A stretch of 64,000 nt of DNA from Escherichia phage vB_EcoM_CRJP21. The position numbers and the translations under genes are program-made. How positions within the stretch are numbered: position 1 is the stretch's first letter; every line of letters starts with the position of its first letter. The notes under the pieces were generated by a model. It was not told the DNA's origin. It did not search any database and was given only the letters and a program-made list of their open reading frames with translations. Below, piece after piece: positions 24,337 to 39,588 of the stretch. The stretch lies in sequence record OQ708376.1; one strand, written 5' to 3'.

Positions 24337-24528
24337 ATGTTGATTTATCAAAGTGATAATATTCGTGTTATGCAGCATCCCTACTTACAAATCTTTGATG
24401 TGCAGCAGTATATGGAAGGTGATGACCCAAGAACCTATGGTCGTAAGTATGATTACTTCACTGTAAAGCAGTGTAAAAATATTAACGAAGTACGACAATT
24501 AGTTCAAGAACTTCAAAACAAAGGTTGA
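24337..24528 (+). CDS. hypothetical small protein
   Basis: trimmed from track ORF 24283. Confidence 0.4.
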   Translation: MLIYQSDNIRVMQHPYLQIFDVQQYMEGDDPRTYGRKYDYFTVKQCKNINEVRQLVQELQNKG

Positions 24529-24554
24529 CTTCGGTCAGCCTTTTTTGTTATAAT
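24522..24554 (+). promoter_or_regulatory. PeSL-like cassette: terminator hairpin (UUCG loop) fused to early promoter
   Basis: ggttgac-ttcg-gtcagcc then T-run then tataat; TTGAC of the stem doubles as -35. Confidence 0.6.
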
Positions 24555-24582
24555 TCTCTTAATAAATTAGAGGATTTTAATT

Positions 24583-25023
24583 ATGTATGTATATCGTTTT
24601 GAACTTAAATTCAGTTACATTGAACCTAACTTAGAACCTGCACGAACTGTAGGTCCGTTTGCACGGTATTCAACCAGATACAGTACTAAAAATGGATTTG
24701 ACCGTTTGCTTATGACTACACCTTCTCAATTCCAACCTGAACCAACTGAGGATGGGATCTATTCAATCAAAAGTGGATGGGTATTTGGCTGTCAAAGTTT
24801 GAAAGATTTGTTCAGATTCTTCACTATGGACTTGGGTAAATTGCATCGTGCTGGGTTTGCTATATCTGTATATGAAGTTCCAGACCACCATGTAGACATT
24901 GGTCGTAATCAGGTTCAGTACTATTGCGGTAGTGCTAAATTAGTTCGTATCATGTCAGTTAAGGAAGCAAAGGATGAGTTCCGACAAAGTAAAAGAGAAA
25001 CACATGAGGTAATATATGGATAA
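24583..25023 (+). CDS. hypothetical protein (146 aa)
   Basis: ORF after PeSL. Confidence 0.6.
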   Translation: MYVYRFELKFSYIEPNLEPARTVGPFARYSTRYSTKNGFDRLLMTTPSQFQPEPTEDGIYSIKSGWVFGCQSLKDLFRFFTMDLGKLHRAGFAISVYEVPDHHVDIGRNQVQYYCGSAKLVRIMSVKEAKDEFRQSKRETHEVIYG

Positions 25024-25360
25024 AACTCAAATAGAATTAAAGAAATTTGTTTCATTCTATCTTCCTGATGACCCACGTAATTCACAAAAAGATATTGAAT
25101 ATTATAATATCCTATCTAAACAGTTAATGAGAAAGTTTCAACAGTGTTTAACTATATTCAATACAGATGGAAGACGTAGATACCGAATCGTTTCAATGAA
25201 TGATGAAAACGCAAATTTCTTTGATTACGATGTAGTTTTTAGAGCATATAATGATGATCGTATAAAATTAAATTATGATCAAATTATACTTGACCTGAAT
25301 GTTATATGTGTTATAATCACTCACGTAGCCGAACTTAATGGTTTTAAAGAATGGTATTGA
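25016..25360 (+). CDS. hypothetical protein (114 aa)
   Basis: ORF. Confidence 0.55.
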   Translation: MDKTQIELKKFVSFYLPDDPRNSQKDIEYYNILSKQLMRKFQQCLTIFNTDGRRRYRIVSMNDENANFFDYDVVFRAYNDDRIKLNYDQIILDLNVICVIITHVAELNGFKEWY

Positions 25361-25374
25361 ATAGAGGATAACAT

Positions 25375-25641
25375 ATGAAGCTTAAATTACAATATAATGG
25401 ATTTACTTTACGTAATGATACTGAATTTATTAATCGTTCTCCTGGTGCTGAACTGTTTTTACGAGAGATGAACATTCCTTTCATCATTACTACAGTGGGC
25501 GACCGTGAAGTTCTACAATATGCAGAGCATCCGATTATTGATGTTCCTTGGTACTCTGAGCATATGTACATGGATATGGCACGTCGCTACAACTGTAAGT
25601 TCGTAGTTGAAGGTGATAAAATTACAGTCGAATTTAAATAA
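25375..25641 (+). CDS. hypothetical protein (88 aa)
   Basis: ORF. Confidence 0.55.
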   Translation: MKLKLQYNGFTLRNDTEFINRSPGAELFLREMNIPFIITTVGDREVLQYAEHPIIDVPWYSEHMYMDMARRYNCKFVVEGDKITVEFK

Positions 25642-25653
25642 GGTAAATTAAAA

Positions 25654-25947
25654 ATGATCAGTACTTCAGTTAATGAAAGCATCGTCGCTGACGTAGAAAT
25701 GGTTAAAGAATGTGCAGATGAAACTCTTCGTGATATGTACATTAATGATTTAATTACTGAATACGGTAGTCGTGGTGTACACGAATTTATTCGTTTAAGT
25801 GGAGAGTTGATGAAAAATCGAATTCGTATGAAGCTTAACGTACATCCAAAAGCATGGGCATTTACATTAAAATACGCAGAAGATATTGTTAATTTGCGTC
25901 GAACTGAAGTATATGAACGTTTGCACAATGGTATGTTAGATAAATGA
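25654..25947 (+). CDS. hypothetical protein (97 aa)
   Basis: ORF. Confidence 0.55.
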   Translation: MISTSVNESIVADVEMVKECADETLRDMYINDLITEYGSRGVHEFIRLSGELMKNRIRMKLNVHPKAWAFTLKYAEDIVNLRRTEVYERLHNGMLDK

Positions 25948-25999
25948 TTGTAAAATAGGAATTCTTAAATGAATTCCTTTTTGTTTATAAGGTATAGTA

Positions 26000-26221
26000 A
26001 TGAAATATATAGTACTTGTACTGATATTATTCAGTACTGTTGTAAGTGCTAAACAAAAAGAATATGTTAAATGTATAAATTATGAAGAGAAATATGTTGA
26101 AACATATAAAAAAAGTATAATTAAAAACGTTTCGATTACTAACAGAGCAACAATCATTGTACTTAAAAATGGGTTAATTATGCTATATAAACCACACGTT
26201 AAATGTGAAATTATTAATTGA
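26000..26221 (+). CDS. secreted small protein
   Basis: signal peptide MKYIVLVLILFSTVVSA. Confidence 0.5.
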   Translation: MKYIVLVLILFSTVVSAKQKEYVKCINYEEKYVETYKKSIIKNVSITNRATIIVLKNGLIMLYKPHVKCEIIN

Positions 26222-26228
26222 GGAAATT

Positions 26229-26801
26229 ATGAATCGTAAAGGTCGTTTTAAAGTATCAAAAAAGAACAAAAGTTCTAGGTTTAAACCTATTGTTTTAACA
26301 GTTAAATCTAACAAAGATTTAACTGCACTTAGTAAAAAGATAATTTCATCTAAGATTGAAGTATCATACGTAAATTCATTAAAATATATGAATGTCAAAC
26401 CACTGGACCAACTCATTTCACTTATATTTGAACGTAATGATTTTGAGATATCAGTAGATGATTATAGAGCCTATAATGCTGGTTTCATTAATGTTACTTG
26501 TAATAAAAAACTAACTGAGTTGGAAAATTTGTCATGTATAATAAATCTAGATAAAGGTGTTGTGAAGTACCATTTTGTACATTTCACTAATATCAATAAT
26601 GGAATGGGTGTACAATCCAGACCTATAGTGCCTACGTGTGATGTTACTAAATTAGCAAAGCTCAATGATGAAGAATATTTTCAAGAAAGCATTGTAACTG
26701 AGCATTTAGATGATATAATAGCTACTTACAAAGAATGCATATGGGTGTTGAATGCTATAAAACCTAAATTGTGTTTAATGAATATTGTTCGTGATTTATG
26801 A
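26229..26801 (+). CDS. hypothetical protein, EEYFQ-motif family
   Basis: trimmed from track ORF 26205; C-terminal DEEYFQESIVTE. Confidence 0.55.
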   Translation: MNRKGRFKVSKKNKSSRFKPIVLTVKSNKDLTALSKKIISSKIEVSYVNSLKYMNVKPLDQLISLIFERNDFEISVDDYRAYNAGFINVTCNKKLTELENLSCIINLDKGVVKYHFVHFTNINNGMGVQSRPIVPTCDVTKLAKLNDEEYFQESIVTEHLDDIIATYKECIWVLNAIKPKLCLMNIVRDL

Positions 26802-26814
26802 ATGGGGAATCGTA

Positions 26815-27258
26815 ATGAGTTGGGTAAATGTTAATAGTATTGAACTTAACGAACAAGATATTTTTGCATTTGTAAATTTAACTAATAACACAGTACTAAA
26901 AGGGCGTTTGTTCAGTGCTAGTGATGGGTACAAATGGATCTCTTTGATGGATGATAGTGGTGTGATTTATAATGTAATGCAATTACCCCAATGGGTATAT
27001 AGTAACACTGCTGACGATGTTCTTACCGCAGTTATGCGTGAGTTTGAAAAACTCCCAGGTGGTGATATCAAAAACAAAGTTTTTAATGCAGAACGTAAAA
27101 ATTATACAGCACAGCAATTGGAATCCCTTGCCATTGCTGCTTATCAAGCTGCTATTAAGAAGCCAGAGTGCGTTATTCTTAAGTATGTACCAGACTTAAA
27201 ACTTACGTTGGAAGACATGGATGCATTCATTTTTACATCTGAACTTGAACAGTACTAA
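26815..27258 (+). CDS. hypothetical protein
   Basis: trimmed from track ORF 26785. Confidence 0.55.
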   Translation: MSWVNVNSIELNEQDIFAFVNLTNNTVLKGRLFSASDGYKWISLMDDSGVIYNVMQLPQWVYSNTADDVLTAVMREFEKLPGGDIKNKVFNAERKNYTAQQLESLAIAAYQAAIKKPECVILKYVPDLKLTLEDMDAFIFTSELEQY

Positions 27259-27373
27259 TTTAACTTTGGGACAACCATTCTTATTATGATATAATGTTTT
27301 ATGTCATTCGATATAAATGACAACGGAACTATAAATATTATAGTAAAATTTATCTCTTATAGGAGTTATAAAA

Positions 27374-27757
27374 ATGGTTGATAAATGGAATAAGAAAGAT
27401 CCATCACATGATGTTGATATTTCTGGTCTAGACAATGCACATAAGCACAAGTATCTAGATTCACTAGGTCTTCTAAAACCAGACCAAAGTCTTGCACATG
27501 ATCGTCCATCCCGTGAAAAAGCATTTAGCCTAGAATCACTAGGTCATGAGCTTAATCGTGTGTTTGAGGATCACCCAATCTATGTACGTGATATTATCGA
27601 GAAACTTAAAGTAACTCCTAAAGAGCACTTTAAAGCAACTGTACACTCTGCATTCCGTGCATTGCATGATTCTCTAAAGAAAACTCACAATCTTCGTAAA
27701 ATTCATGATGAAATCGTGAATGCAATCGAAAGTGAAAAACATAAGTTCAAGAAGTAA
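27374..27757 (+). CDS. hypothetical basic protein (127 aa)
   Basis: SD aggag; shares Y(L/V)(D/N)SLGLL motif with 28004..29515. Confidence 0.65.
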   Translation: MVDKWNKKDPSHDVDISGLDNAHKHKYLDSLGLLKPDQSLAHDRPSREKAFSLESLGHELNRVFEDHPIYVRDIIEKLKVTPKEHFKATVHSAFRALHDSLKKTHNLRKIHDEIVNAIESEKHKFKK

Positions 27758-27763
27758 TAAAAA

Positions 27764-27797
27764 GGGGTTGACTAAGGTCAGCCCTTTGTTGTATCAT
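27764..27797 (+). promoter_or_regulatory. PeSL-like cassette (variant loop TAAG)
   Basis: gggttgac-taag-gtcagccc then tatcat. Confidence 0.5.
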
Positions 27798-27827
27798 AAC
27801 TTCTCAATATAACTGAGGTATCATATA

Positions 27828-27941
27828 TGCAAGGTTTGAAATTTGTAGTTGCTGCACTCATCGCCGCAGTTCTGGTTGGTGGTGTATTCTATGTAGTGGA
27901 TCAAAAAGTAAATCCACCTGCACAAGAACAATCTAAGTAAC
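27828..27941 (+). CDS. small membrane peptide (37 aa)
   Basis: hand-translated MQGLKFVVAALIAAVLVGGVFYVV...; between two PeSLs. Confidence 0.35.
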
Positions 27942-27946
27942 AAAAT

Positions 27947-27986
27947 AAGGTTGACTTCGGTCAGCCTTTTCTTTATACTATAAATA
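27947..27986 (+). promoter_or_regulatory. PeSL-like cassette plus T4 late-promoter-like TATAAATA
   Basis: ggttgac-ttcg-gtcagcc; tataaata at 27979-27986. Confidence 0.55.
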
Positions 27987-28003
27987 TAGTCATAGAGAAA
28001 AAA

Positions 28004-29515
28004 ATGAAATCTATGGAGAGAAATCAAATGCCAAGTAATTTTACTGATAAAAATGGTGGTAACATGGCTGGTCACTCTGATAAATGGAGTGAACGCAACC
28101 GCCGTCCAAATAGTTATCAAGCAGGTCAAGGTTCACGTGGGTCACGTAACCAAGGAACTGGTCTAGCTGGTAAAGCAAACGCAGAAGCAGGTGAAGTTAA
28201 GAGTACTGAGAACATGACTGAGCTAGAAAAGCTACGTTATGTTAACTCATTAGGTCTTCTTAACGCAACACAAAAACAACGCCTTGCTGATATGGAACGT
28301 GCTGAGAAAGAACAAGCAGTTCCTAAAGAAGAACCAAAAGCAGAAGTACCTAAAGCTGCTAACCCTGTTAAAGAGTTATCAGATAACTTAGGTAAGATCT
28401 TTGCTAACAAACCACAGTTGATTCAGGGTATTGTCAAAGCACTACAGGCAGTTCCTAAAGAAGAACTCAAAGGTAAAGCACAAGCTGTACTTGATGTAAT
28501 GAAAGGTAATAAGAGCACTGAACCAACTGAAGTATTCAGTACTATCATGCGTGCACTTGAAGGTACACACAAAGAAGATTCCAAAGAACCTGAACAGGGT
28601 GAAGCAAGTCTTGATGGTATTCTTAAAACTTTTGATAATATTGGTAAAGCAGACCGTGCTAATGCCCAGCAAGTCAAGAATGTACTGGCTAAACTTGAAA
28701 ACCGTTTAGAAGGTAAAGACAATAAGGTTAAGCTCGTATCAGATGCAGTTAACAGTGCACTTAAATCTTATGTACAAGGTGAGAAAAGTCGCTTCGTAAC
28801 AGCTATGGATGCTGCATTCAACACTATGAAAAAGTATGAAGCAGAACATGGTGAGAAGGTAACACCAGATGGTTATCTAAAGCGTGCAGATGAAGAGGGT
28901 GCAGTTGAACAGAAAGATGTTGAGCCTGAGCAAGAAGAAATACCTGATACCGTTGATATGGATGGATACATTCATCGTCCTGAGATGGAAGAGTTTGGGT
29001 CAGATAAAGAAGGTTTTGAACATGCAATGGCAGTATATAAAGCATTAGTTAAAAATCCAGATTATGCTAACCGTTTTGTTGACGAGTTTGATAGTGCATG
29101 GAATAACTACAAAGAGAAAGGTTATGACTTCCCTGCTGAAGCTGCATTCTTTGAACTTGGTAAACTATTAGCTAAACATGGAATTGACGTTGGTTCATCT
29201 GATTCCGAAGGTATGGAAGAAGAACATCTTGAAATGACCGATAAATCAATTCATGAACTTCAAAAGCTAATGATGTGGATATCCGAGATTGGCAAAAAAG
29301 CAGGTGCTGATCGTAAAAGTATCAACAAAAACATTAGTTGGATTAAAGATAATGTTGGTAACAATGCTCGTAAACTTCAAAAGGCGTGGGCTGATTTAGT
29401 AAATGGTGCAGATGATGTTGACATTGAATCACCAGAAGCATATGAGTATGCACTAACTACACTTGATAACTCATTCAAAGAGTACGACAGTGGTGTTGGA
29501 AAGGATAAAAAATAA
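28004..29515 (+). CDS. hypothetical charged, low-complexity protein (503 aa)
   Basis: K/E/A-rich; repeats of VPKEE/PKAEVPK. Confidence 0.7.
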   Translation: MKSMERNQMPSNFTDKNGGNMAGHSDKWSERNRRPNSYQAGQGSRGSRNQGTGLAGKANAEAGEVKSTENMTELEKLRYVNSLGLLNATQKQRLADMERAEKEQAVPKEEPKAEVPKAANPVKELSDNLGKIFANKPQLIQGIVKALQAVPKEELKGKAQAVLDVMKGNKSTEPTEVFSTIMRALEGTHKEDSKEPEQGEASLDGILKTFDNIGKADRANAQQVKNVLAKLENRLEGKDNKVKLVSDAVNSALKSYVQGEKSRFVTAMDAAFNTMKKYEAEHGEKVTPDGYLKRADEEGAVEQKDVEPEQEEIPDTVDMDGYIHRPEMEEFGSDKEGFEHAMAVYKALVKNPDYANRFVDEFDSAWNNYKEKGYDFPAEAAFFELGKLLAKHGIDVGSSDSEGMEEEHLEMTDKSIHELQKLMMWISEIGKKAGADRKSINKNISWIKDNVGNNARKLQKAWADLVNGADDVDIESPEAYEYALTTLDNSFKEYDSGVGKDKK

Positions 29516-29523
29516 ACATTTAA

Positions 29524-29556
29524 AAGGTTGACTTCGGTCAACCTTTTTTTGTAAAT
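29524..29556 (+). promoter_or_regulatory. PeSL-like cassette
   Basis: perfect hairpin ggttgac-ttcg-gtcaacc then T7. Confidence 0.6.
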
Positions 29557-29586
29557 ATAAAAGAGGAATTAAGAAGAGGGATTACA

Positions 29587-29838
29587 ATGAAAAAATATAT
29601 TATATTTGGAATTGTATTATTTTCCAGTACTAGTTATGGTGCAGATTATCATTGCTCCGTAGCAAGACAGGATTTCAGAAATGGGGATTTCTATACCACT
29701 TCATACACAAAAGGAATAATACACGACATCGACACAACTATTGGATTTAATGCATTTGATAACAAAGATTCATATACTTCAGGTATACTATCTGAGCGTA
29801 AGACTGATGTAATGGGAATAGAAAAAGAGTTCCGGTGA
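29587..29838 (+). CDS. secreted small protein
   Basis: signal peptide. Confidence 0.55.
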   Translation: MKKYIIFGIVLFSSTSYGADYHCSVARQDFRNGDFYTTSYTKGIIHDIDTTIGFNAFDNKDSYTSGILSERKTDVMGIEKEFR

Positions 29839-29848
29839 TTCAGTAGCA

Positions 29849-30172
29849 ATGTGCAATGACATTGAAAGTACTAAAACAATTTATTATAATAATGAACGTA
29901 ATTATCGTTTTCATAATTTAACCACAAATAAAAGTTTACTATTTTACAATTGTAAAGAAGTAAAACTCCCACCCGACAATAGCTGTAACCCGACGAACCC
30001 ATCACCAGCACAATGTAATACTCAATCTGAACCTGATAACAATAAAAAAGACAAAGATAAAGATAAAAAAGAAGACAAAAAACCTTTAAAAGATAAAAAG
30101 AAAGATAAAAAACCTAATCCGTTTAAAAATAATAAACCAGCACAACCCGATATGACGTGTAAAATAAAATAA
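29849..30172 (+). CDS. hypothetical protein with K/D-rich repeat (KDKDKDKKEDKK)
   Basis: ORF. Confidence 0.5.
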   Translation: MCNDIESTKTIYYNNERNYRFHNLTTNKSLLFYNCKEVKLPPDNSCNPTNPSPAQCNTQSEPDNNKKDKDKDKKEDKKPLKDKKKDKKPNPFKNNKPAQPDMTCKIK

Positions 30173-30181
30173 GGATATATA

Positions 30182-30601
30182 ATGAAAAAGATTTTTTTAA
30201 GTATTATTTTAGTACTTTTTAGTTTTAATGTATATGCAGCAGATGCTAAACAGGTTGCAAATACAGTAAAAGATGTTATAGTAGATAATGCTCCTACATT
30301 AGAGGAAATTGGGGTAAAAACTTGTGATATAGTAATATATAATTTAGTTAATGATGAACGAGTTATGTTGAATACGTATGAACAAGTAGTCCCATTGGTT
30401 GAATCTGGTGATGCTTTTAGCTTTACATATAAAGTTAAATTAACAGGAGGGGTTGAAGTTAATCTTGACATTGATACCGCTTCAGTACTAAAAGATAAAC
30501 TAGGATATGTGTTCAATCGTATTCGTGAAGAAGGTCATCTTAAGTATGTTTATGAAAGTAAAATACTAAAACGTGCAATAGTTATAGAAAACTGTAAATG
30601 A
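30182..30601 (+). CDS. secreted hypothetical protein
   Basis: signal peptide ...NVYAADAK. Confidence 0.6.
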   Translation: MKKIFLSIILVLFSFNVYAADAKQVANTVKDVIVDNAPTLEEIGVKTCDIVIYNLVNDERVMLNTYEQVVPLVESGDAFSFTYKVKLTGGVEVNLDIDTASVLKDKLGYVFNRIREEGHLKYVYESKILKRAIVIENCK

Positions 30602-30608
30602 TAATAAA

Positions 30609-30642
30609 AGGGTTGACTTCGGTCAGCCTTTTTTGTTATGAT
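30609..30642 (+). promoter_or_regulatory. PeSL-like cassette
   Basis: gggttgac-ttcg-gtcagcc then T-run then tatgat. Confidence 0.6.
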
Positions 30643-30670
30643 GTTGATATTAACTACAGAGGATAAAGTA

Positions 30671-31312
30671 ATGACTAAGCAAGAAATATTCAAAACTTTA
30701 ATTGACATTTTGCGTCCATCAAAAACTCGTTGTGCGATGGAGTTTGATATTCCTTATGCTGAACGCGTAATCTTTCCACAAGTTAAAGCTGCTGGACTTA
30801 CTTTGCTTGGAATGGGGATGTACTCTGTAGTAGTTGAACATAAAAACTATCCTGGACGAGCATTTAAAGTAACCACTTCACGCTGGGATGGTTTTCGTGC
30901 TTATGCAAAGTACTGCATTGAAAACGCAGGAACCAAGTTTCTTCCAGTGATCTACAGTGCCAACGAACAAGGAAACTTTGGATGGTATGAGATGGACAAG
31001 TACTATCCTATAATTAAACAAAAAAATAATTATGATGACTTTGTTAGTACTAAAATTGGAGATTTGTATTCGTATGCACATGCTGGTCAGTACGCAACTT
31101 CAGTGAATGATATGCGTGGAAATTCTGAAGAGATTGCTATTGCAACGGTCGCTGCTAACATCATGAAAGAGTTTCACGGGCGTTTTGTACCAGACATTCA
31201 TTCAAGTAATGTGATGATGGATAAAGATGGGAATGTATTCATTACTGATCCTCTTTCGTGTGATGTGCGTAGAGAAATACCAATTACTGAAGAAGATCCA
31301 GTTTTTTATTGA
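30671..31312 (+). CDS. protein-kinase-like fold candidate (213 aa)
   Basis: G-loop-like GMGMYSVV, AFKV, catalytic-loop-like DIHSSNVMMDKDGNVFITDP. Confidence 0.4.
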   Translation: MTKQEIFKTLIDILRPSKTRCAMEFDIPYAERVIFPQVKAAGLTLLGMGMYSVVVEHKNYPGRAFKVTTSRWDGFRAYAKYCIENAGTKFLPVIYSANEQGNFGWYEMDKYYPIIKQKNNYDDFVSTKIGDLYSYAHAGQYATSVNDMRGNSEEIAIATVAANIMKEFHGRFVPDIHSSNVMMDKDGNVFITDPLSCDVRREIPITEEDPVFY

Positions 31313-31373
31313 CAGAACTGATGTTCTGATGTATTCTTAATAAACCATAAAAATTGCGGTAAAGGATAAAATC

Positions 31374-31655
31374 ATGCGTTCATTTGAAAACTTAATAGGT
31401 AAGCATCTTTTATCTGAAATTGATGCAGACGTTAAAGAATTATCCAAATCAAAAAGTTACATTCATTTGGATGAACTGTTTGTTAAGTACGGTGAGATTG
31501 GTTTTAAGTCATTATTTGTTTTTACTATGAAAGTACATAGTTTAAAGTACTTCGATTTGAGTGCTAAAGATGGTGAACCGAATCTATATTACATGTATTA
31601 CCTTAAGAACAAAGATGAAGCTAATACATTACTCTCTGAATATATATTGGGGTAA
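31374..31655 (+). CDS. hypothetical protein (93 aa)
   Basis: ORF with SD aaggataaaa. Confidence 0.55.
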   Translation: MRSFENLIGKHLLSEIDADVKELSKSKSYIHLDELFVKYGEIGFKSLFVFTMKVHSLKYFDLSAKDGEPNLYYMYYLKNKDEANTLLSEYILG

Positions 31656-31657
31656 AA

Positions 31658-31996
31658 ATGGAACAATATTTTGAATTAATAAACAAAGTATCATTTTATG
31701 TAGTATCTTTGGTTTGGGTGTATTATATGTTTTGCTATATTATTGCATTCTTCCGATACACTACTTTATATGAACGTATCTACTATGATGCCCCAATTTC
31801 ATTCTTGATGTTTTGTGCCTGTACGTGGGGAATATTAGAAGTACTGATATGTGGGTATAGTACTGATGAATTAAATCTGGTATCGGTGTTGACTGGGTTT
31901 TCATTTGTTGTTATGATAGCTGCCGTTCCAGTATGGTTGTTCTTTGGACTAGTTCATCGCATTGATATATGGCGTTCTAATATCCCTGAAAAGTAA
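31658..31996 (+). CDS. small 3-TM membrane protein, R.NIPE family
   Basis: C-terminal WRSNIPEK; paralog family. Confidence 0.6.
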   Translation: MEQYFELINKVSFYVVSLVWVYYMFCYIIAFFRYTTLYERIYYDAPISFLMFCACTWGILEVLICGYSTDELNLVSVLTGFSFVVMIAAVPVWLFFGLVHRIDIWRSNIPEK

Positions 31997-31999
31997 GGA

Positions 32000-32347
32000 T
32001 TGGTAATGATTTATTACACTAACATGTTTGCCTATGCTGTTGCTTGCATTTACATTGTTTACTTCTTATTCGGTGGAGTACTGTGCTTCTTTAAGTACAA
32101 AACGTTGTTCAACCGAATGTACCCAAATCATCCAATTGTAGTTGTACTTTTGATTCTTTCAGTTTCTCAAATAATCGTTGAAACTACAATGGGTATCAGT
32201 AGTGTACATTATAGTTTTGGTACTATAGTAATTATTACTATGCTTATTGCATACATTTTAGTACTTGGATATGGTATCTTTGGTAATATTGGTATGAAAA
32301 TGTATCATCGAATTAAAACATTACGTGATAATCTACCGGAGCGTTGA
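32000..32347 (+). CDS. small 3-TM membrane protein, R.NIPE family
   Basis: C-terminal LRDNLPER. Confidence 0.6.
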   Translation: MVMIYYTNMFAYAVACIYIVYFLFGGVLCFFKYKTLFNRMYPNHPIVVVLLILSVSQIIVETTMGISSVHYSFGTIVIITMLIAYILVLGYGIFGNIGMKMYHRIKTLRDNLPER

Positions 32348-32348
32348 T

Positions 32349-32693
32349 ATGTATAATTTGAACCTAATCTCATATATTATAACAACACTGTTTACATTCT
32401 ATGCCTTTGTTGGTATAATCCTACTGTACTTTAAATTTTATAAAGTGTTTAACCGTTTCTATCCTTCAATGGAGAATGAGTTTTTCTTTGTGTTGTACGT
32501 AGGTTACACATTAATGGCTACATGTTTCACTGTAGCCGATGGTGTCATCGGCATTAAAACTGATTCCCCAAATGGTAGTACGCTGGTTGCATTTATTCTT
32601 ACTGGATTCCTTGCAACTTATATTGCCTTCATTACAACATGGTCAGTGGTTGAATTTCTCTTGCGACTACGAAAGAATATGCCGAATCGATAG
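32349..32693 (+). CDS. small 3-TM membrane protein, R.NIPE family
   Basis: trimmed from track ORF 32325; C-terminal RKNMPNR. Confidence 0.6.
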   Translation: MYNLNLISYIITTLFTFYAFVGIILLYFKFYKVFNRFYPSMENEFFFVLYVGYTLMATCFTVADGVIGIKTDSPNGSTLVAFILTGFLATYIAFITTWSVVEFLLRLRKNMPNR

Positions 32694-32702
32694 GAGACAT
32701 AT

Positions 32703-32957
32703 ATGTTTGCGTTGCGTAATAAAAACACTAAAGAATTATTATGTATTGATACCGTATGGGATTGTGCGGGGTCAACTACAGTTCTTGAAGAAGGAACTGG
32801 ATATTGCGTGTTTGTTGTACATGATAGGAATGAACTCGAATTATTACTTGCTGAGTTCAATGCTGGTGGTAATCCTAACAGTACTGAATACCCTGAGATT
32901 ATCAATCCAGCACCACCAGGCTCTTATGAAATTCTACAACTGTGGGAGTTGAAGTAA
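32703..32957 (+). CDS. hypothetical protein (84 aa)
   Basis: ORF. Confidence 0.55.
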   Translation: MFALRNKNTKELLCIDTVWDCAGSTTVLEEGTGYCVFVVHDRNELELLLAEFNAGGNPNSTEYPEIINPAPPGSYEILQLWELK

Positions 32958-33337
32958 TGCGTCAAATGCACAAAGTAACCGAGCTAAACAAGCGTCTGGT
33001 TAAACAATCAATGTTCGAGGATAAAGAGTCTTATTATAACTTTAAACGTGCAGTAGAGGCTGCTATCCACATTCAGAAGCTTAAAGAACGTGGTTGTATT
33101 ATTCTGGAAAATGGTTCGGAAGTTGTAACGGATGACTTTAGTGTAGCGTTTGATGTTTCACCTGACGGGACGCTATCAATGCCCCGCTTAGGAACTGGAA
33201 ACATGACTGTTTGGGTTGGCTTCACTATGGGGAATGTACCTGGTACTGTGTACGTAGATGATGCAGAATTGAAAGACAGTTTCAAAAACTTATCTTATCT
33301 TGAACCACAATACGCACATGAAATGAATTTATTTTGA
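32957..33337 (+). CDS. hypothetical protein
   Basis: TAATG overlap; trimmed from track ORF 32942. Confidence 0.55.
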   Translation: MRQMHKVTELNKRLVKQSMFEDKESYYNFKRAVEAAIHIQKLKERGCIILENGSEVVTDDFSVAFDVSPDGTLSMPRLGTGNMTVWVGFTMGNVPGTVYVDDAELKDSFKNLSYLEPQYAHEMNLF

Positions 33338-33338
33338 G

Positions 33339-33366
33339 TTGACAAACACATTCAGTACTGTATAAT
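33339..33366 (+). promoter_or_regulatory. sigma70-like early promoter
   Basis: ttgaca-N16-tataat with CAGTACTG spacer. Confidence 0.6.
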
Positions 33367-33413
33367 GCTTATCAAGGGGATGAACTTCTCATCCCTACAA
33401 TCGAGGAACTACC

Positions 33414-33968
33414 ATGATTACTTTTAAGAAAACTGCTAACCACATCCATGAAATCTACATTAACGGTCACAAAGCTGGCCTTCTTCGTTTACTCGCCCAT
33501 CACCCTGATGCTACCGTATCTGATAATGAACCTAAAGATTGGCGTGTCTTTTTCTTTGGAAAGTACAGTGATTTTCAAGTATCAAACCTGAAGAACATTC
33601 GTTCAGTATGCACGTTAAATGAAATTAAAGAAAAGTTAGCACAAGCATTGAAAACTAATCCAGATGGTGTTCTTCCACCTGATAACTTTGTAGAGAAAGG
33701 TTATGCCTTAGCTCATTTCAAAGATGGTACTATTCAATCTATCAGTACTGAATATGAATATCATTGGACTGAGTACTTCACTTATGGTTCGAGTAATACA
33801 TTGATGGATTCACGTAGTAAATTGGAAGAAGTACTGACTCGTATGAATGAACGCGAGCGTCAGTTATATGACAAACCAGAAATGTGGAGTTCAACTTACA
33901 TTGACCGTATTGACTATGTTATTATGACTCCAATCTTTGACACTGCTTACTATGATTCTTTGAAATAA
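33414..33968 (+). CDS. hypothetical protein (184 aa)
   Basis: ORF after promoter. Confidence 0.65.
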   Translation: MITFKKTANHIHEIYINGHKAGLLRLLAHHPDATVSDNEPKDWRVFFFGKYSDFQVSNLKNIRSVCTLNEIKEKLAQALKTNPDGVLPPDNFVEKGYALAHFKDGTIQSISTEYEYHWTEYFTYGSSNTLMDSRSKLEEVLTRMNERERQLYDKPEMWSSTYIDRIDYVIMTPIFDTAYYDSLK

Positions 33969-33979
33969 GGATAACTTAT

Positions 33980-34156
33980 ATGAAACTACGTACTCGTAAT
34001 CGACTGATGGATGCACTGTACCATGAACAGCTTTCACTGAATGAAGTGAAGCGTCAGTTAATGTACACATATCAGTTTCCCGCTCGCATTGCAAAACAAC
34101 GTGCTAAAGAATTGCTGAAAGAAGCAATCGAGTACTGGGAATCTGATTCGTACTAA
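33980..34156 (+). CDS. hypothetical small protein (58 aa)
   Basis: hand-translated, below track cutoff. Confidence 0.35.
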   Translation: MKLRTRNRLMDALYHEQLSLNEVKRQLMYTYQFPARIAKQRAKELLKEAIEYWESDSY

Positions 34157-34195
34157 TATTACGTGATATGTCACGTTAATTAAGTGAGGCGATAA

Positions 34196-34447
34196 ATGAA
34201 AATATTATTAGTTCTAATACTACTAATAGTTTTACCATTTACTTTAGTATCCCCTGGACTTGCATGGAATGTATTTGTGTACTTAGTATGTACTATTGTA
34301 GTAAATGGTATCTTGTTCTTAGTTCTATTCATAAATGGAATAGGACACGGTGGAGGATGGACCAGTACTGCTGATATTGTACATAAAACCACTATGTCTT
34401 TATTTGTAATGTGGAATTTATTCTGGACTTGGTTTGTGTTCTTCTAA
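34196..34447 (+). CDS. small membrane protein
   Basis: hydrophobic helices. Confidence 0.5.
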   Translation: MKILLVLILLIVLPFTLVSPGLAWNVFVYLVCTIVVNGILFLVLFINGIGHGGGWTSTADIVHKTTMSLFVMWNLFWTWFVFF

Positions 34448-34455
34448 TTAAAAAT

Positions 34456-34827
34456 ATGAATATAGATTTGAAAGGTGCAACACGAACTGTTATCCTCGTT
34501 GGGGAATATGCTATCAAGATTCCAACCTTTAAAAGTTGGAAGCTATTCTTAACAGGGATGATAGCTAACCTCAATGAACGTTCGTGGATGCAGTACTCCA
34601 ATCGTAGTGATAGTAGTATCTGTCCTACGTTGTGGTCATCATGTACTGGACTAGTAACTGTACAGAAACGTTGTAAGCCAGTTCAACATAGGGGTTTATT
34701 TTGGGTGGAGTTGTGTGCTTTAGCATTGAATTCAGAGTTAAGTACTGACTTCTTCTATTCAGATGCGAAGCCAGAAAACTTTGGGTATCTGGGTGGTAAG
34801 TTAGTTAAACTTGATTATGGAGATTAA
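34456..34827 (+). CDS. mini kinase-like protein (N-lobe/catalytic-loop-like, ends at DYG)
   Basis: YAIKIP; DAKPENFGY (compare HRDLKPEN); KLVKLDYGD (compare DFG). Confidence 0.4.
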   Translation: MNIDLKGATRTVILVGEYAIKIPTFKSWKLFLTGMIANLNERSWMQYSNRSDSSICPTLWSSCTGLVTVQKRCKPVQHRGLFWVELCALALNSELSTDFFYSDAKPENFGYLGGKLVKLDYGD

Positions 34828-34828
34828 T

Positions 34829-35098
34829 ATGTACGCACTGTATAATAAAGAAAAGAAACGATTTGCTAAGGTTGAAATTTCGATTGATACATTTGATATG
34901 TTGGAGTACTGTATTGTAACTGACCTATATGCTAACTTGTATTACGTTCTTGATGACGTATCAGTACTGCAACGATTGCTTGAGAATTCCAAAAGTCAAT
35001 GCCAGGGCATCCATGATGGTTCATCTTATGAAACACCTGAGTGTTCCTACGGCTATCTGGACGGGTATGAGATTGTGAAGTTGGGGATCATTGAATAA
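34829..35098 (+). CDS. hypothetical protein
   Basis: trimmed from track ORF 34811; could be the downstream half of a split gene with 34456..34827. Confidence 0.4.
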   Translation: MYALYNKEKKRFAKVEISIDTFDMLEYCIVTDLYANLYYVLDDVSVLQRLLENSKSQCQGIHDGSSYETPECSYGYLDGYEIVKLGIIE

Positions 35099-35103
35099 AG
35101 AAA

Positions 35104-35138
35104 AGGGTTGACTTCGGTCAGCCCTTTTTGCTATAATT
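35104..35138 (+). promoter_or_regulatory. PeSL-like cassette upstream of denV
   Basis: gggttgac-ttcg-gtcagccc then T5 then tataat. Confidence 0.65.
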
Positions 35139-35165
35139 ATTTCATCAAGACGAGAGGATGAATAC

Positions 35166-35681
35166 ATGACACGCATTAACTTAGTACACGTTAAAGAACT
35201 TGCTGACCAACATCTGATGGCTGAATATCGTGAACTCCCACGTGTATTTGGTGCTGTACAAAAACACGTTCAAGCACGTAAGCGTGTACGTGATTTCAAA
35301 ATTAACAGTACTTATCTGTTAGGTTCAGGTCATGTGACATTCTTTTACGACAAGTTGCTGTACTTACAGAAGCGTCATATCGATATTGTTAACGAATGTT
35401 TGCGTCGTGGTATGAAGATTCAAAACACTGAAGTAAACGACATTAGCGGATTCCCTGCTGAGTTTTGTAATGACTACGTACCATCGGAGTCAGAGATTAA
35501 AATGTCTCGTGACCGTTTGATTGAGAAGCTCCAGATGAAGCCTACGTGGTATAAGTTTACTGATGTTGAATGTCCACAGTACGTTAAAGATATGCAGAAC
35601 GTAAGTAGTAAGAACGAATCTAGTACTGATATGTTCGACGAAATTGAAGAACAAATCAAAGATGAAATGAATAATTATTAA
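35166..35681 (+). CDS. denV: endonuclease V (pyrimidine dimer DNA glycosylase/AP lyase), T4 DenV homolog with C-terminal acidic extension
   Basis: [30 protein letters not shown]...KRVRDFKI......[10 protein letters not shown]...KR.I......L.RG...PTWYK matches remembered T4 EndoV nearly residue for residue. Confidence 0.93.
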
Positions 35682-35696
35682 AGGAAAGGGTTGACT

Positions 35697-35716
35697 TCGG
35701 TTACACAAAGGAACAT
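35697..35716 (+). promoter_or_regulatory. degenerate PeSL remnant
   Basis: gggttgacttcggttacac: 5' arm intact, 3' arm decayed. Confidence 0.4.
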
Positions 35717-35719
35717 AAC

Positions 35720-35914
35720 ATGTTATTAGTATATTCAAAGCGTTTCTGGATTTCTTTTATTGTACTATCGCTAATCGGCTTCGGTTTGAGTATACTCTTT
35801 TCGTGGGATGAATTGGGCACATGGTATTATGAAGTCCCGTGGTACATGAAGATAGCTCCTTGTTATGCGGCATTGTTCGTGTCATTCCTTATTGTTGTCT
35901 TCAGCGAGGATTAG
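35720..35914 (+). CDS. small membrane protein
   Basis: two TM helices. Confidence 0.5.
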   Translation: MLLVYSKRFWISFIVLSLIGFGLSILFSWDELGTWYYEVPWYMKIAPCYAALFVSFLIVVFSED

Positions 35915-36020
35915 TTGATGTAGTATGTGCTACACCAAAGTATTTGGATATTTTAGATATAAACATTGACACCTGTTCTATCTTTCTGTATTATGTACAT
36001 CACCAAATGAGGAATACAAC

Positions 36021-36380
36021 ATGGCATCTTTAAGTGAAATCGCAGAATACAACCCACTAACAATCTCAACAATTCAACGTACAAAAACTTTTTATTTCCG
36101 TCCTTCTGATGGATGGAAACGTGGAATGAATGGTGACTATCGAGTACTGGAAGATTCACTAATCGAGCGTATCAACTCTGAACTACAGAAGTATGAAGGT
36201 GTTAAAGTTGTGCGTTCAACTTCTCGTTATTTTGAGTACTACATTGAGTCTTCAACTGTAAATGAAAACTCATCATTCTCGGTGGACAACACTGATATTC
36301 TTCGTAATGCAGTTGGTCTGTTATGCAACATTGCAGAAGAAATGGGCTTAACTATTACTACTATGAGTGAATTAGAATAA
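36021..36380 (+). CDS. hypothetical protein (119 aa)
   Basis: SD gaggaa. Confidence 0.6.
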   Translation: MASLSEIAEYNPLTISTIQRTKTFYFRPSDGWKRGMNGDYRVLEDSLIERINSELQKYEGVKVVRSTSRYFEYYIESSTVNENSSFSVDNTDILRNAVGLLCNIAEEMGLTITTMSELE

Positions 36381-36384
36381 CATA

Positions 36385-36420
36385 AAGGGTTGACTTCGGT
36401 CAGCCCTTTTTGCTATAATA
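36385..36420 (+). promoter_or_regulatory. PeSL-like cassette
   Basis: gggttgac-ttcg-gtcagccc then T5 then tataat. Confidence 0.65.
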
Positions 36421-36445
36421 CTTTCATCAACAGAAGAGGTAACAC

Positions 36446-36676
36446 ATGAAACTATCTTTTATACGATTGGCTGAATTCTTTGGTACTGATGTAATTACTC
36501 TACAACAAATAGCAGATAATACATCATTAACTACGCAAGAAGTACTTGACTTAGATGTAATTCAGTGCAATAATACTTCAATCGATTACAAAGAAGGTCT
36601 TGTCGAAAAAGATAAGATTCAGGCTAAGATTAATGGTGCTGGACGGGTTCAGTACTGGAAAGCTATATTAAGTTGA
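36446..36676 (+). CDS. hypothetical protein (76 aa)
   Basis: SD agaggt. Confidence 0.55.
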   Translation: MKLSFIRLAEFFGTDVITLQQIADNTSLTTQEVLDLDVIQCNNTSIDYKEGLVEKDKIQAKINGAGRVQYWKAILS

Positions 36677-36685
36677 ATTGGAGAT

Positions 36686-38335
36686 TTGTATATGATTGGA
36701 AGTTTTTGTTTTATTGACAAAAAAAAACGTTCAAAACCTTATATTATTGCTGAAAAGGTAAGAAATATATTTTCTAATATAAAAGAAATAAATTGTGACT
36801 TTATTGGTTTTGATATTAACTCAATACTTGAATGGGAAGGGGAAAAAACATATATTTTATATGAAATAAATGGTATAACAAAAAAGATTAGATATGATAT
36901 TCTAAGACAACATTCTAATAATGGTTCTTTTCCGAATAAAAAACATTTTAATTCTGAAGAATTAAAAAAATGTAGTAAAGAAAAAAAAATATTTGATTAT
37001 GATAAGTCAATGAGATTGTCATCTTATTATTCAACACCAAATATAATAACGGTTGGTGATAAAGATATATCATATTTTACTGCTCTTCAGTTAGAAGCTA
37101 TATCTCCATATATGCATTTTAACTCTATCACACCCACTGAATATTCGAAAAAAATATTGAATAAGATAAAAGAGTTTAAAAATGTTGAAGTTATTTTTTA
37201 TGGATTTTATGTATCATACTATTCAGAATGGAATAACAAAAAAACAAAAATAGTAATATCTTTTAATGAATATGTTACCTATCATATGACAATTGATGAT
37301 TTTTTATATAGTTTAGATAGTAATATAACAGATATTCCTCGTTTTAATTATAATAATGAAAATTTTATTTATCGTATGATGTTTTTTGGATATGCTAATA
37401 ATCATACTTTTGATTTATCAAATTTAAACATTAAAAATTCCAAATCAATAATTAGAAAAAAATGTAAAGTATGTAAAAGTACTGATGTAGTGAGTATTGC
37501 ACAACATATTAGGAATCCTAGTTGCTCTGTATGTTTTTATAATACTGAAAAATTTAATTATAATGAATATGAAGCATGTGAAGAAGTTGTTAATGAGTAT
37601 AAGGGATTTCATTATATGAATCATGATAATATAAAATTCATTCCAATTGGATGTTCTTACACACCATTTGAATGGTATGAAATAATAAAATATAAGGGTG
37701 GTGATTCTTTTATTGGTTTTTATATTAACAGTTCTTCAGAGTTTGACGGTAATAAGACGAAAATTTTATTAGATATTAATGGGGTAATATTAACTCCAAC
37801 AATTCTCAATTTTCTTGAGAGATACGAAAATATGTATAAAGACCTAATAAATCCAACAATATCTTTGGAAATTATGTCTAATAATAAATACAAACCCTCG
37901 GTTGCACGTCACAAAAGAATCTTTAGTCAACCTATTTTAACATTAGGAGGGATTATTTCATCAAATGATTTATCATCATATGAAATGATAGTCGCATTGT
38001 TCCTAATCAAAAATAATATTGATTTTCATTTTCAATTCAGAACTGAAGAATCAATAGAATTTATGGGAAATAGAAGATATGATTTTTATGTACCAGATTA
38101 TAATCTAATCATTGAAGTTGATGGTGCACAGCATACAAACTATTGCCCAATATTTCATAGAAGTGAAGAGTGCTTACAAAAACAAATGGAAATTGATGAA
38201 ATAAAACTTGAATTTGCAAAAGAATCAGGATATAATTTTGCTCGCATTAACTATGATGAATCTATTGTTGATGAACTTATTAATGTGATTAAAAAAATAT
38301 CATCTGAAAATAATCAGATTATTAGAACTTATTAA
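36686..38335 (+). CDS. AT-rich multi-domain protein with C-terminal DUF559/Vsr-like PD-(D/E)xK endonuclease domain
   Basis: C-terminus ...RRYDFYVPDYNLIIEVDGAQH...EIDEIKLEFAKESGYNFARINYDE; Cys pairs KCKVCKS...CSVCF; markedly lower GC than neighbours. Confidence 0.55.
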   Translation: MYMIGSFCFIDKKKRSKPYIIAEKVRNIFSNIKEINCDFIGFDINSILEWEGEKTYILYEINGITKKIRYDILRQHSNNGSFPNKKHFNSEELKKCSKEKKIFDYDKSMRLSSYYSTPNIITVGDKDISYFTALQLEAISPYMHFNSITPTEYSKKILNKIKEFKNVEVIFYGFYVSYYSEWNNKKTKIVISFNEYVTYHMTIDDFLYSLDSNITDIPRFNYNNENFIYRMMFFGYANNHTFDLSNLNIKNSKSIIRKKCKVCKSTDVVSIAQHIRNPSCSVCFYNTEKFNYNEYEACEEVVNEYKGFHYMNHDNIKFIPIGCSYTPFEWYEIIKYKGGDSFIGFYINSSSEFDGNKTKILLDINGVILTPTILNFLERYENMYKDLINPTISLEIMSNNKYKPSVARHKRIFSQPILTLGGIISSNDLSSYEMIVALFLIKNNIDFHFQFRTEESIEFMGNRRYDFYVPDYNLIIEVDGAQHTNYCPIFHRSEECLQKQMEIDEIKLEFAKESGYNFARINYDESIVDELINVIKKISSENNQIIRTY

Positions 38336-38342
38336 TAATAAA

Positions 38343-38378
38343 AAGGGTTGACTTCGGTCGGCCCTTTTTGCTATAATT
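38343..38378 (+). promoter_or_regulatory. PeSL-like cassette
   Basis: gggttgac-ttcg-gtcggccc then T5 then tataat. Confidence 0.6.
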
Positions 38379-39179: not shown

Positions 39180-39246
39180 TTACATGCATTGACAGTACTA
39201 ACAATGTGTAGTACTATAACAAAAGTTTAATCACTGGAGACACCCA

Positions 39247-39588
39247 ATGCGTGAGTTTTTTGAATCTAATATAATGCTTGGTATTACACTGATATACATG
39301 TTTGTATTCTTGTTTTATCATTCAATTGTAATTAGTCTTTGGTATTTTAAAAGGAAAGTTGTTTTTAAATTGTATTCGTATGATAATGTATTCTTAGTTG
39401 TATATAGCATTATACAAGGTGGGTTTATTTTATTTGGTGTGATGACATATGTGATTTACATGTTACAAATTGATAATACACCACACATTACACAATATGT
39501 TGTGTTTTCAGGACTAATCGTCTGGTTATTGGTGTGTACTATGTATTTTATTATTAAAGCTCGTGATAACTTTAAATGGGGATTCTAA
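39247..39588 (+). CDS. small 3-TM membrane protein, R.NIPE family
   Basis: paralog family. Confidence 0.6.
   Translation: MREFFESNIMLGITLIYMFVFLFYHSIVISLWYFKRKVVFKLYSYDNVFLVVYSIIQGGFILFGVMTYVIYMLQIDNTPHITQYVVFSGLIVWLLVCTMYFIIKARDNFKWGF

Follow-up and report, generated by a model that had tools for sequence, protein, structure and literature searches.

The genome of Escherichia phage vB_EcoM_CRJP21 contains a short repeated element in which an RNA hairpin and promoter-like boxes are combined. We examined this element in a stretch of 64,000 nucleotides from the sequence record OQ708376.1, hereafter the window; positions are those of the window and, where other genomes are also discussed, carry the prefix w. 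The element lies in a series of small + strand open reading frames (ORFs), among them denV and genes for a T7 gp0.7-like kinase, a virion protein, an endonuclease of HNH type and an ATPase-like protein. A megablast search with 24-39 kb returned Escherichia phage 121Q (99.2% identity), accompanied by about 35 other Asteriusvirus genomes, among them PBECO4, G17, JP4, UE-S1 and WPEC3. The window evidently comes from a Rak2-like jumbo coliphage of approximately 350 kb (Asteriusvirus, 121Q/PBECO4-type) and thus not from a T4-type phage strictly speaking. A preliminary description of the window had pointed to the promoter-early stem-loops (PeSLs) of T4-type phages; the kind of element was recognized correctly.

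Repeated elements and the modules between them

Pattern searches identified eight intact + strand copies, with TTGAC at 24525, 27768, 27951, 29528, 30613, 35108, 36390 and 38348, and one truncated + strand copy that starts at 35691; copies are named here by the first base of TTGAC. The consensus layout is AAAGGG-TTGAC-TTCG-GTCAGCCC-T5-GC-TATAAT, and each element occupies about 40-65 bp. All nine copies are intergenic, located on the + strand and confined to 24.5-38.4 kb, and the number of matches expected from dinucleotide-preserving shuffles is 0. A covariance model built from 25 distinct copies and run over all 64 kb with filters off returned exactly the eight intact copies, at 48-65 bits. 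The next + strand match scored 20.7 bits, mirror-image matches on the - strand did not exceed 30 bits, and nothing else scored above 21 bits. The element and its copies are as follows (folding energies and covariance scores are given where available).

24517..24582, + strand: element copy 1; hairpin 24520-24543, -35 TTGACT 24525-24530, -10 TATAAT 24549-24554; -14 kcal/mol, 60 bits; Shine-Dalgarno (SD) sequence AGAGGA and ATG 24583; the TGA stop of the upstream ORF (24337-24528) falls inside TTGAC
27758..27826, + strand: element copy 2; loop TAAG, -35 27768-27773, -10 TATCAT 27792-27797; -18 kcal/mol, 49 bits
27940..28003, + strand: element copy 3; -35 27951-27956, 17-nt spacer, -10 TATACT 27974-27979; -12.4 kcal/mol, 48 bits
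29516..29586, + strand: element copy 4; perfect palindromic stem (GTCAACC), T7 run, TAAATA at the -10 position; -14.2 kcal/mol, 53 bits; probably a terminator only
30602..30670, + strand: element copy 5; -35 30613-30618, -10 TATGAT 30637-30642; SD AGAGGA and ATG 30671; 56 bits
35099..35165, + strand: element copy 6, consensus type; -35 35108-35113, TGC and TATAAT 35132-35137; -18.8 kcal/mol, 65.5 bits; leader with 5' untranslated region (UTR) ATTTCATCAAG, SD GAGAGGA and denV ATG 35166
35682..35707, + strand: half-element; AAAGGGTTGACTTCGGT, then unrelated sequence; -1.7 kcal/mol, no fold
36381..36445, + strand: element copy 7 (among intact copies); -35 36390-36395, -10 TATAAT 36414-36419; -18.3 kcal/mol, 61.7 bits
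38336..38405, + strand: element copy 8; 3' arm GTCGGCCC with two U.G wobbles, -35 38348-38353, -10 TATAAT 38372-38377; -18.7 kcal/mol, 64.6 bits

The preliminary description had counted at least nine hairpin-promoter copies with a TTCG loop and TATAAT. Eight of these are intact, but the ninth is a half copy. It had been described as decayed and placed at 35697..35716; it is indeed defective, but it is best placed at 35685-35702 and represents the 5' half of an element, not a copy altered by point mutations. The TTCG loop is general, with TAAG in copy 27768 as the exception, but TATAAT is perfect only in 24525, 35108, 36390 and 38348; three copies carry TATCAT, TATACT or TATGAT, and 29528 has no credible -10 box.

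The gap that holds each copy opens at the upstream stop codon, and the A-run begins 0-10 nt past this stop in nine of nine cases. In all eight intact copies the gap is closed by a GAGG-type SD and an ATG located 50-60 nt downstream of TTGAC. In the GGG/CCC subtype, the conserved unit extends beyond the -10 box into the 5' UTR (TATAATYATTTCATCAAC...GAGG). The elements separate the following modules.

24583..27757, + strand: module 1; eight small ORFs (equivalents of 121Q gp192-199)
27827..27940, + strand: module 2, between copies 2 and 3; a lone ORF for a 37-aa hydrophobic peptide; not in UE-S1 and ph0011
28004..29515, + strand: module 3; 503-aa virion structural protein (phrog_20398)
29587..30601, + strand: module 4; three ORFs, two with N-terminal signal-peptide-like sequences; not in UE-S1 and ph0011
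30671..35098, + strand: module 5; T7 gp0.7-like protein kinase (phrog_15752) and about 13 small ORFs
33339, within module 5: hairpin-less promoter-like site, TTGACA-N16-TATAAT
35166..35681, + strand: denV; pyrimidine-dimer DNA glycosylase (Pfam Pyr_excise)
35720..36380, + strand: two ORFs after the half-element, a 64-aa membrane-like one and one of 119 aa; within a 2.6-kb stretch missing in ph0011
36446..38335, + strand: module 7; conserved 76-aa ORF (36446-36676) and 549-aa HNH/homing-endonuclease-like ORF (36686-38335)
38406..39179, + strand: first gene of module 8; 257-aa putative ATPase (phrog_1250; weak AAA_16 match)

The 121Q annotation lets the kinase gene of module 5 start at the counterpart of the ATG at 30638, and this ATG overlaps TATGAT, the -10 box of copy 30613. 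The records of G17, JP4 and UE-S1 use the ATG at 30671, behind AGAGGA; a start at 30671 rather than 30638 is the consistent choice.

Other identities of the repeat were considered and rejected. A host-derived sequence or prophage repeat was ruled out, as the 40-nt core has 0 matches across 5,426 complete E. coli genomes. A transposon-like mobile element, such as a miniature inverted-repeat transposable element, was set aside, as the copies occupy orthologous sites in all relatives and a single orientation, although no search aimed at target duplications or at terminal inverted repeats beyond the hairpin was made. As for known RNA families, Rfam at gathering thresholds returned six tRNAs, whose genes cluster at w933-3807, and nothing else. 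Nor did the covariance scan reveal additional copies elsewhere in the window; the best extra match, at 16057 (20.7 bits), is a different terminator after a sigma-factor gene (w16057-16125, GGTTGGCTTATGCCAACC-T8, with TGTGATATAAT about 25 nt downstream), which is outside the repeat family. At w~42700-58000, on the - strand, coding strand and GC skew both flip; the 121Q counterpart contains approximately 13 tandem genes for RCC1-like 'DNA condensation proteins' on the opposite strand.

Predicted terminator and promoter functions

On the + strand, the elements fold into hairpins of -12.4 to -18.8 kcal/mol (z -4.3 to -5.8) that carry a C(UUCG)G tetraloop and a U-run; the order in RNA is A-run, GGGUUGAC, UUCG, GUCAGCCC, U-run. 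A GC-rich hairpin with an immediate U-run downstream of a gene is what is expected of an intrinsic terminator, the function assigned in the preliminary description, and the G17 record labels the orthologous sites ARNold terminators, while that of UE-S1 labels them terminators. In an alignment of 75 copies from the window and nine relatives, TTGAC in the 5' arm is invariant (75/75), and the 3' arm reads GTCAG in 62, GTCAA in 9, GTCGG in 3 and GTTGG in 1. All of these pair with TTGAC in + sense RNA, the variants via U.G, and a U.G wobble is present in 66 of the 75 copies. Since the 3' arm varies by wobbles only, the hairpin is preserved in + strand RNA. The same pairs are C.A mismatches on the - strand, and therefore the GGG/CCC copies fold more weakly there, with an internal mismatch. 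One stem pair covaries (GC 12, AU 8, GU 5, unpaired 0), and 97.5% of cells are paired. We infer that the common wobble also prevents a second TTGAC from arising on the opposite strand.

The promoter-like boxes are built into this structure. The final five bases of the 5' arm and the first loop base form the -35 box TTGACT; the remaining loop, the 3' arm, the T-run and GC make up an 18-nt spacer, and TGC-TATAAT has the form of an extended -10 box. TTGACT, a spacer of 17-18 nt and a -10 box (TATAAT, TATGAT, TATCAT or TATACT) are present in seven of the eight intact copies, with TG upstream of the -10 box in five of these seven. Four copies reach a promoter score of 11/12, and three others reach 10/12. 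Boxes and spacing thus agree in 7/8 copies with the putative sigma70-type promoter of the preliminary description, but not in 29528, which lacks the -10 box.

This anatomy suggests how an element may work. An upstream transcript would be ended by the hairpin and its U5-7 run, a candidate intrinsic terminator that would insulate the downstream module. TTGACT in the 5' arm and loop would then serve as the -35 box, and TGnTATAAT as the extended -10 box, for host sigma-70 RNA polymerase, which would restart transcription about 7 nt downstream. The new transcript would be free of the hairpin and would have the conserved 5' UTR and a strong SD at its start. Because it would start downstream of the hairpin, the promoter and terminator roles would not clash.

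An alternative is that the hairpins are only terminators or stabilizers of mRNA 3' ends, with TTGAC and TATAAT being incidental and downstream genes being expressed by partial read-through or from phage-specific promoters. The absence of a -10 box from 29528, the imperfect boxes of several other copies and the annotation of these sites just as terminators in database records fit this idea, and a phage sigma-factor gene is located upstream, at ~w15-16 kb (121Q gp167). However, TTGAC would not need to be invariant in 75 copies, as many sequences could keep the stem, and a -10 box would not be expected at a constant 17-18 nt in seven of the eight copies. In addition, the PeSLs of the RB49/phi1 type, which share the composite design but have another sequence, gave strong promoter activity in reporters. 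We consider a terminator-only function very unlikely.

The core of the element is 96% identical to that of divergent relatives, with 87% identity in the downstream coding sequence; flanking genes of the relatives are 82-88% identical where the core stays at 96%. In Klebsiella phage K64-1, an identical 33-nt core is found ahead of denV, which has 78% nucleotide identity, and the upstream side is unrelated. The element core evidently is under strong constraint.

Several promoter-like sequences of the window are outside the repeat family. TTGACA-N16-TATAAT at 33339 (w33338-33413) has a hairpin, GGGGATGA...TCATCCC, in its leader; TTGACA at 39189 (w39180-39246) is followed by a hairpin, AGTACTA...TAGTACT, between the -35 box and the -10 box; and a perfect consensus promoter sequence at 22752 (w22752-22779) overlaps the end of an ORF.

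Rearrangements in related phages

Homologous regions of 19-23 kb from nine relatives (G17, 121Q, PBECO4, JP4, UE-S1, WPEC3, SD-15, ph0011 and EcMJ) were aligned to the window. Gene order is not identical among these phages, and insertions/deletions (indels) and replacements start or end at elements. In three deletions/insertions, the crossover is located inside an element. The 37-aa ORF between 27768 and 27951 is missing in UE-S1 and ph0011, which retain one hybrid copy. The sequences missing in UE-S1, w27795-27934 and w36451-38339, end in hybrid junctions inside elements, with overlaps of 43 and 70 nt between high-scoring segment pairs. The second deletion removes everything between 36390 and 38348, and with it the whole of module 7, and its 70-nt overlap spans the element. 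The three-ORF module between 29528 and 30613 is also missing in UE-S1 and ph0011.

Two half-elements were found. In ph0011, w35702-38342 is absent, and the break occurs directly past TTGACTTCGGT of the half copy; the junction consists of the denV flank of the window as far as AAGGGTTGACTTCGGT, followed by copy 38348. This junction shows that the seemingly decayed copy of the window consists of an element's left half and that the cut fell immediately behind the loop. The half-element at 35682..35707 evidently is a recombination scar. In JP4, a 640-bp cassette with an extra 203-aa ORF occupies the site of 36390; its left flank is a degraded half-element (CAAGGATTCACTTC|...), and its right flank is an intact element.

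Other events involve the edges of elements. A 3.8-kb block of ph0011, containing three hypothetical ORFs and a Dam-like methylase gene, lies at the site of 35108 with a copy on each side. WPEC3 and EcMJ share a 640-bp insertion whose end is the 5' edge of 27951, and the right edge of a variable endonuclease slot is 38348 in all relatives. When orthologous elements were compared, 10 of 17 cases had a conserved downstream gene but unrelated sequence over the 200 nt upstream, which implies that the element moves with the downstream gene and that variable material adjoins its 5' edge. Finally, the 5' UTR of copy 1 in WPEC3 and EcMJ is now of the ATTTCATCAACTAC type found at other copies, a patch change that points to ectopic gene conversion.

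We identified 36 distinct breakpoint sites, nine of which are within 15 nt of the element spans that make up 3.7% of the region (binomial 5e-6). Breakpoints were observed at 8/9 element junctions versus 8/45 other gene junctions (Fisher 9e-5) and versus 3/11 other gaps that measure 25 nt or more (p = 0.009), although the events in nine related genomes are not phylogenetically independent, which makes these P values optimistic and indicative only.

These comparisons support cassette exchange at the elements. We estimate a probability of roughly 75% that the elements are PeSL-type composite regulatory cassettes of the early small-ORF region of the Asteriusvirus genome and that recombination among the copies shuffles modules. 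As direct repeats of 40-65 bp in the same orientation, they would be recombined by the phage system, with modules being deleted, inserted or replaced. Insertion could proceed through circular intermediates, and recombination would keep the copies homogenised.

The elements could also be plain transcription signals that are alike by functional constraint, with indels clustering at them through selection for the borders of transcription units. Nearly all positions of the 36-nt core are plausibly regulatory (UP-like A-run, GC clamp, -35, UUCG loop, U-run, TGn and -10), near-identical cores occur in unrelated phages beside unrelated genes, and the enrichment is just p = 0.009 when measured against other sizeable intergenic gaps. 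On the other hand, border selection by itself predicts neither the three junctions with the crossover inside the repeat and a hybrid copy kept, nor two independent half-elements each broken at the loop, nor the conversion of a 5' UTR patch between non-orthologous copies. We regard this explanation as improbable.

A different source of variability is provided by homing endonucleases. The 549-aa ORF at 36686-38335 is HNH/homing-endonuclease-like (PHROG 559/9084), and its polymorphic allele fits a free-standing homing endonuclease gene. This slot has at least five mosaic alleles among Asteriusvirus genomes, which have only domain-sized pieces in common: 549 aa in the window, 487+93 aa in 121Q, approximately 372 aa in G17, JP4 and EcMJ, 379 aa in PBECO4 and 516 aa in WPEC3. 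In 121Q, G17, JP4, PBECO4, WPEC3 and EcMJ, other alleles take the place of the module 7 endonuclease, and the slot is always preceded by one and the same conserved ORF of 76 aa (36446-36676). GC content drops to 0.28, the minimum of the window, in the 36-38 kb bin. A 137-aa HNH gene, located in JP4, WPEC3, EcMJ and ph0011 between the stop of ORF 34829-35098 and the A-run of 35108 (w35099), also has the features of a homing endonuclease gene; the repeated element itself does not. Together, the slot and the HNH insertion make homing endonucleases a second, independent source of plasticity in the region.

It may be argued that free-standing homing endonuclease genes entering intergenic sites account for most of the plasticity and that the elements are bystanders. 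The mosaic slot and the HNH gene ahead of 35108 favor this argument, and no element marks the left border of the variable slot. Yet cassettes free of nuclease genes vary at elements as well (the 37-aa ORF, the 29587-30601 module, the 203-aa ORF of JP4 and the methylase block of ph0011), and crossovers between elements require no endonuclease. As the chief cause, homing is quite unlikely. The preliminary description had portrayed the elements as bracketing exchangeable cassettes; crossovers and breakpoints at elements bear this out, but part of the variability is due to homing endonuclease genes.

In addition to the relatedness of the compared genomes, several observations weigh against the reading of the elements as PeSL-type cassettes. 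About three quarters of the breakpoint sites (27/36) are away from elements. On its left side (36674-36687), the most variable slot is bounded by a gene border, the stop of the 76-aa ORF, and not by an element, and the HNH insertions adjoin an element with no recombination with it. Selection would also favor indels that respect the borders of transcription units. The spacer is 18 nt rather than 17, the -35 box is TTGACT rather than TTGACA, 29528 is devoid of a -10 box, and three copies have -10 boxes matching at 4-5 of six positions. Termination and initiation in the Asteriusvirus group are, moreover, deduced from sequence.

The events away from elements are of several kinds. ORF 34196-34447 is cleanly lost, and in-frame deletions occur within the structural gene 28004-29515. 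In the latter, the internal deletions of the 503-aa virion gene (w28312-29522) differ by relative, with ~28921-29232 affected in JP4, UE-S1 and ph0011 and several smaller segments in SD-15; repeat-mediated loss of domains, or else problems in assembly, may explain them. Recombination also joined the tandem paralogues 39247-39588 and 39576-39926 (47% protein identity), and a deletion in PBECO4, WPEC3, SD-15 and EcMJ fuses or removes one paralogue (breakpoints 39142-39426 / 39583-39588).

Distribution and comparison with known systems

The 40-nt core had blastn matches in 335 phage records. The number of places per record was 10 in 121Q, 13 in BF17, 14 in RaK2, 8 in KVP40 and 7 in GAP32; the 121Q figure is a whole-genome count of blastn places, and positions were taken from the 121Q sequence up to 150 kb. 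Within these limits, 121Q has eight copies at 98.7-112.7 kb, variants at 138-149 kb, and none in 1-98 kb, which contains replication and structural genes. The 138.5-148.6 kb region of 121Q (38556, 44925 and 48619 of the stretch compared) is a second region of tiny ORFs, beyond or at the 3' end of the window, with variant elements that have the -35 box in the stem, e.g., GTGGTTGACTTCGGTCAGCCATTTTGCTATTAT, followed by a recurring leader motif, (C)TAGCCCACAGGGTG.

Outside Asteriusvirus, the core was also matched in Aeromonas phage 65, Cronobacter CR3, Xanthomonas XbC2, Vibrio D480 and Enterobacter EC151, the last being a 60-kb phage with a variant -35 TAGACT. A near-identical core of 33-40 nt is found in unrelated lineages (K64-1/RaK2, XbC2, GAP32, KVP40-like, Aeromonas phage 65, CR3 and D480). 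As nearly all core bases have a plausible role in regulation, convergence on a minimal design could well be the cause. The 5' UTR motif CATCGAAACGAGA is harder to explain in this manner: it begins 5 nt past the -10 box, at the same offset, in JP4 (~15030-15045 of the stretch compared), nt-1 (~5615-5630) and CR3 (~2545-2560, as CATCGAAACGAAAC), which represent three phage families, and is not accounted for by promoter or terminator constraints. No protein similarity was detected between the genes beside elements in VH7D, CR3, D480 and nt-1, on the one hand, and the Asteriusvirus sequences compared, on the other. A tentative and rather doubtful possibility is that the family AAAGGGTTGACTTCGGTCAGCCCTTTTTGCTATAAT, some copies with CATCGAAACGAGA, is common to unrelated large lytic phages (the Rak2-like Asteriusvirus, Alcyoneusvirus, Mimasvirus and GAP32, KVP40-like and Aeromonas T4-like phages, and Certrevirus) by descent or transfer and acts as a docking sequence that moves promoter-plus-gene cassettes between families at co-infection. 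If true, it would be a recombinase-free analogue of integrons spanning phage families.

The near-identity of the core across phage families may stem from convergent optimisation or from an exchange of regulatory cassettes among families. The same device and recombination footprints in 350-kb Rak2-like jumbo phages suggest a general strategy of large lytic phages, with a possible dual role: insulation of early genes in small transcription units, and portable homology for the shuffling of accessory genes. The elements predict the borders of transcription units and correct start codons (30671, not 30638, for the kinase), and they mark dispensable or exchangeable gene blocks in phages used for therapy and biocontrol. 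The ~40 bp element is also a candidate compact terminator-promoter part for engineering. The finding extends a little-studied mechanism beyond T4-like phages and overturns nothing.

Several known systems resemble these elements in part. The morons of lambdoid phages are likewise self-contained units, each with its promoter, gene(s) and terminator, whose presence varies among related phages. However, morons are individually unrelated insertions with unrelated signals and often deviant GC content, whereas the Asteriusvirus signals belong to one repeat family that is itself the homology for exchange. Integron cassettes with their attC sites also have short structured repeats between exchangeable cassettes and possibly circular intermediates, an analogy made by the authors who described PeSLs. 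In Asteriusvirus, in contrast, nothing points to an integrase or site-specific recombinase (the annotation of the 121Q regions examined lists no integrase, and no genome-wide search was made), each cassette has its own putative promoter, and exchange presumably occurs by general homologous recombination. The free-standing homing endonuclease genes of T4-like phages are similar in being intergenic, HNH-type and polymorphic among relatives in the same region, but they account for some events only, and the repeated element is not part of an endonuclease gene.

The closest known system is that of PeSLs. These were defined in RB49 and phi1 as repeated motifs of a sigma-70 promoter and a stem-loop, with an AT-rich leader past the upstream stop and, as the final part, an SD and start codon; the position of the stem-loop distinguishes five subclasses, one overlapping the -35 box, and stems contain G-T pairs (Arbiol et al. 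2010, PMC2839356). They showed strong promoter and terminator activity in reporters, and inverse PCR revealed mini-circles with crossovers in the loop (PMC2839356). A later study covered PST/T4 and nt-1/KVP40, described half-PeSLs adjoining indels and gave the nt-1/KVP40 consensus as A3-4 G3-loop-C3 T3-4, TTGYVH-N17-TAWWAT (Comeau et al. 2014, PMC4122927). The PeSL-rich stretch of nt-1 at 50-57.5 kb contains the elements AAAAGGGTTGCTTCGGCAGCCCTTTTTTGTTATTCT...ATCAAC and GAAAAGGGTTGCACTATGCAGCCCTTTTTAGTATTAT...CATCGAAAC, and the KVP40-like phage VH7D contains GAAAAGGGTTGACTGCGGTCAGCCCTTTTGTGTATTAT and GAAAAGGGTTGACTGCGGTCAGCCCTTTTGTGTATTATAGCTACATCAAC. Both phages have the same layout (A-run, GGG, TTGNNN in the stem, tetraloop, wobble, T-run, -10 and CATCAAC), with the wobble opposite the first T of TTG.

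Judged by these descriptions, the Asteriusvirus elements have every PeSL feature that can be assessed in sequence. Sigma-70-like -35 and -10 boxes about 17 nt apart in a repeated intergenic motif are present in 7/8 intact copies. A stable polyG...polyC stem-loop with G-T pairs is located at the promoter, the GGG...CCC stem overlapping the -35 box; an AT-rich tract follows the upstream stop, and an SD and start codon form the 3' end. All window copies are concentrated, in one orientation, in a 14-kb stretch of small + strand ORFs that is hyperplastic; indels and replacements between close relatives coincide with copies, half copies occur by indels (w35685-35702 and the JP4 half-element), and crossovers lie in the loop. 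The nt-1/KVP40 subtype has nearly the same sequence, as seen in nt-1 and VH7D. The -35-in-stem layout is no departure from PeSLs, as both the 2010 definition and actual nt-1 elements include it; the reference to PeSLs in the preliminary description was accurate. The one sequence-level item of the original description that the elements lack is residence in a T4-like (Straboviridae) genome, which is a matter of taxonomic scope and not a mechanistic feature, the genome that carries them being that of a Rak2-like jumbo phage. In detail, the Asteriusvirus copies are far more uniform than the PeSLs of RB49 and PST, with a single stem sequence; they have an 18-nt spacer and number just ~10 per 350-kb genome. 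Among the papers covered by our search, none described PeSLs in phages of the Rak2-like group or Asteriusvirus; in the CBB paper, RpoD-like promoters are listed apart from terminators, and the predictions for CBB and GAP32 are generic. PeSLs have been described so far in T4-like phages only, and we read the Asteriusvirus elements as PeSLs outside this group.

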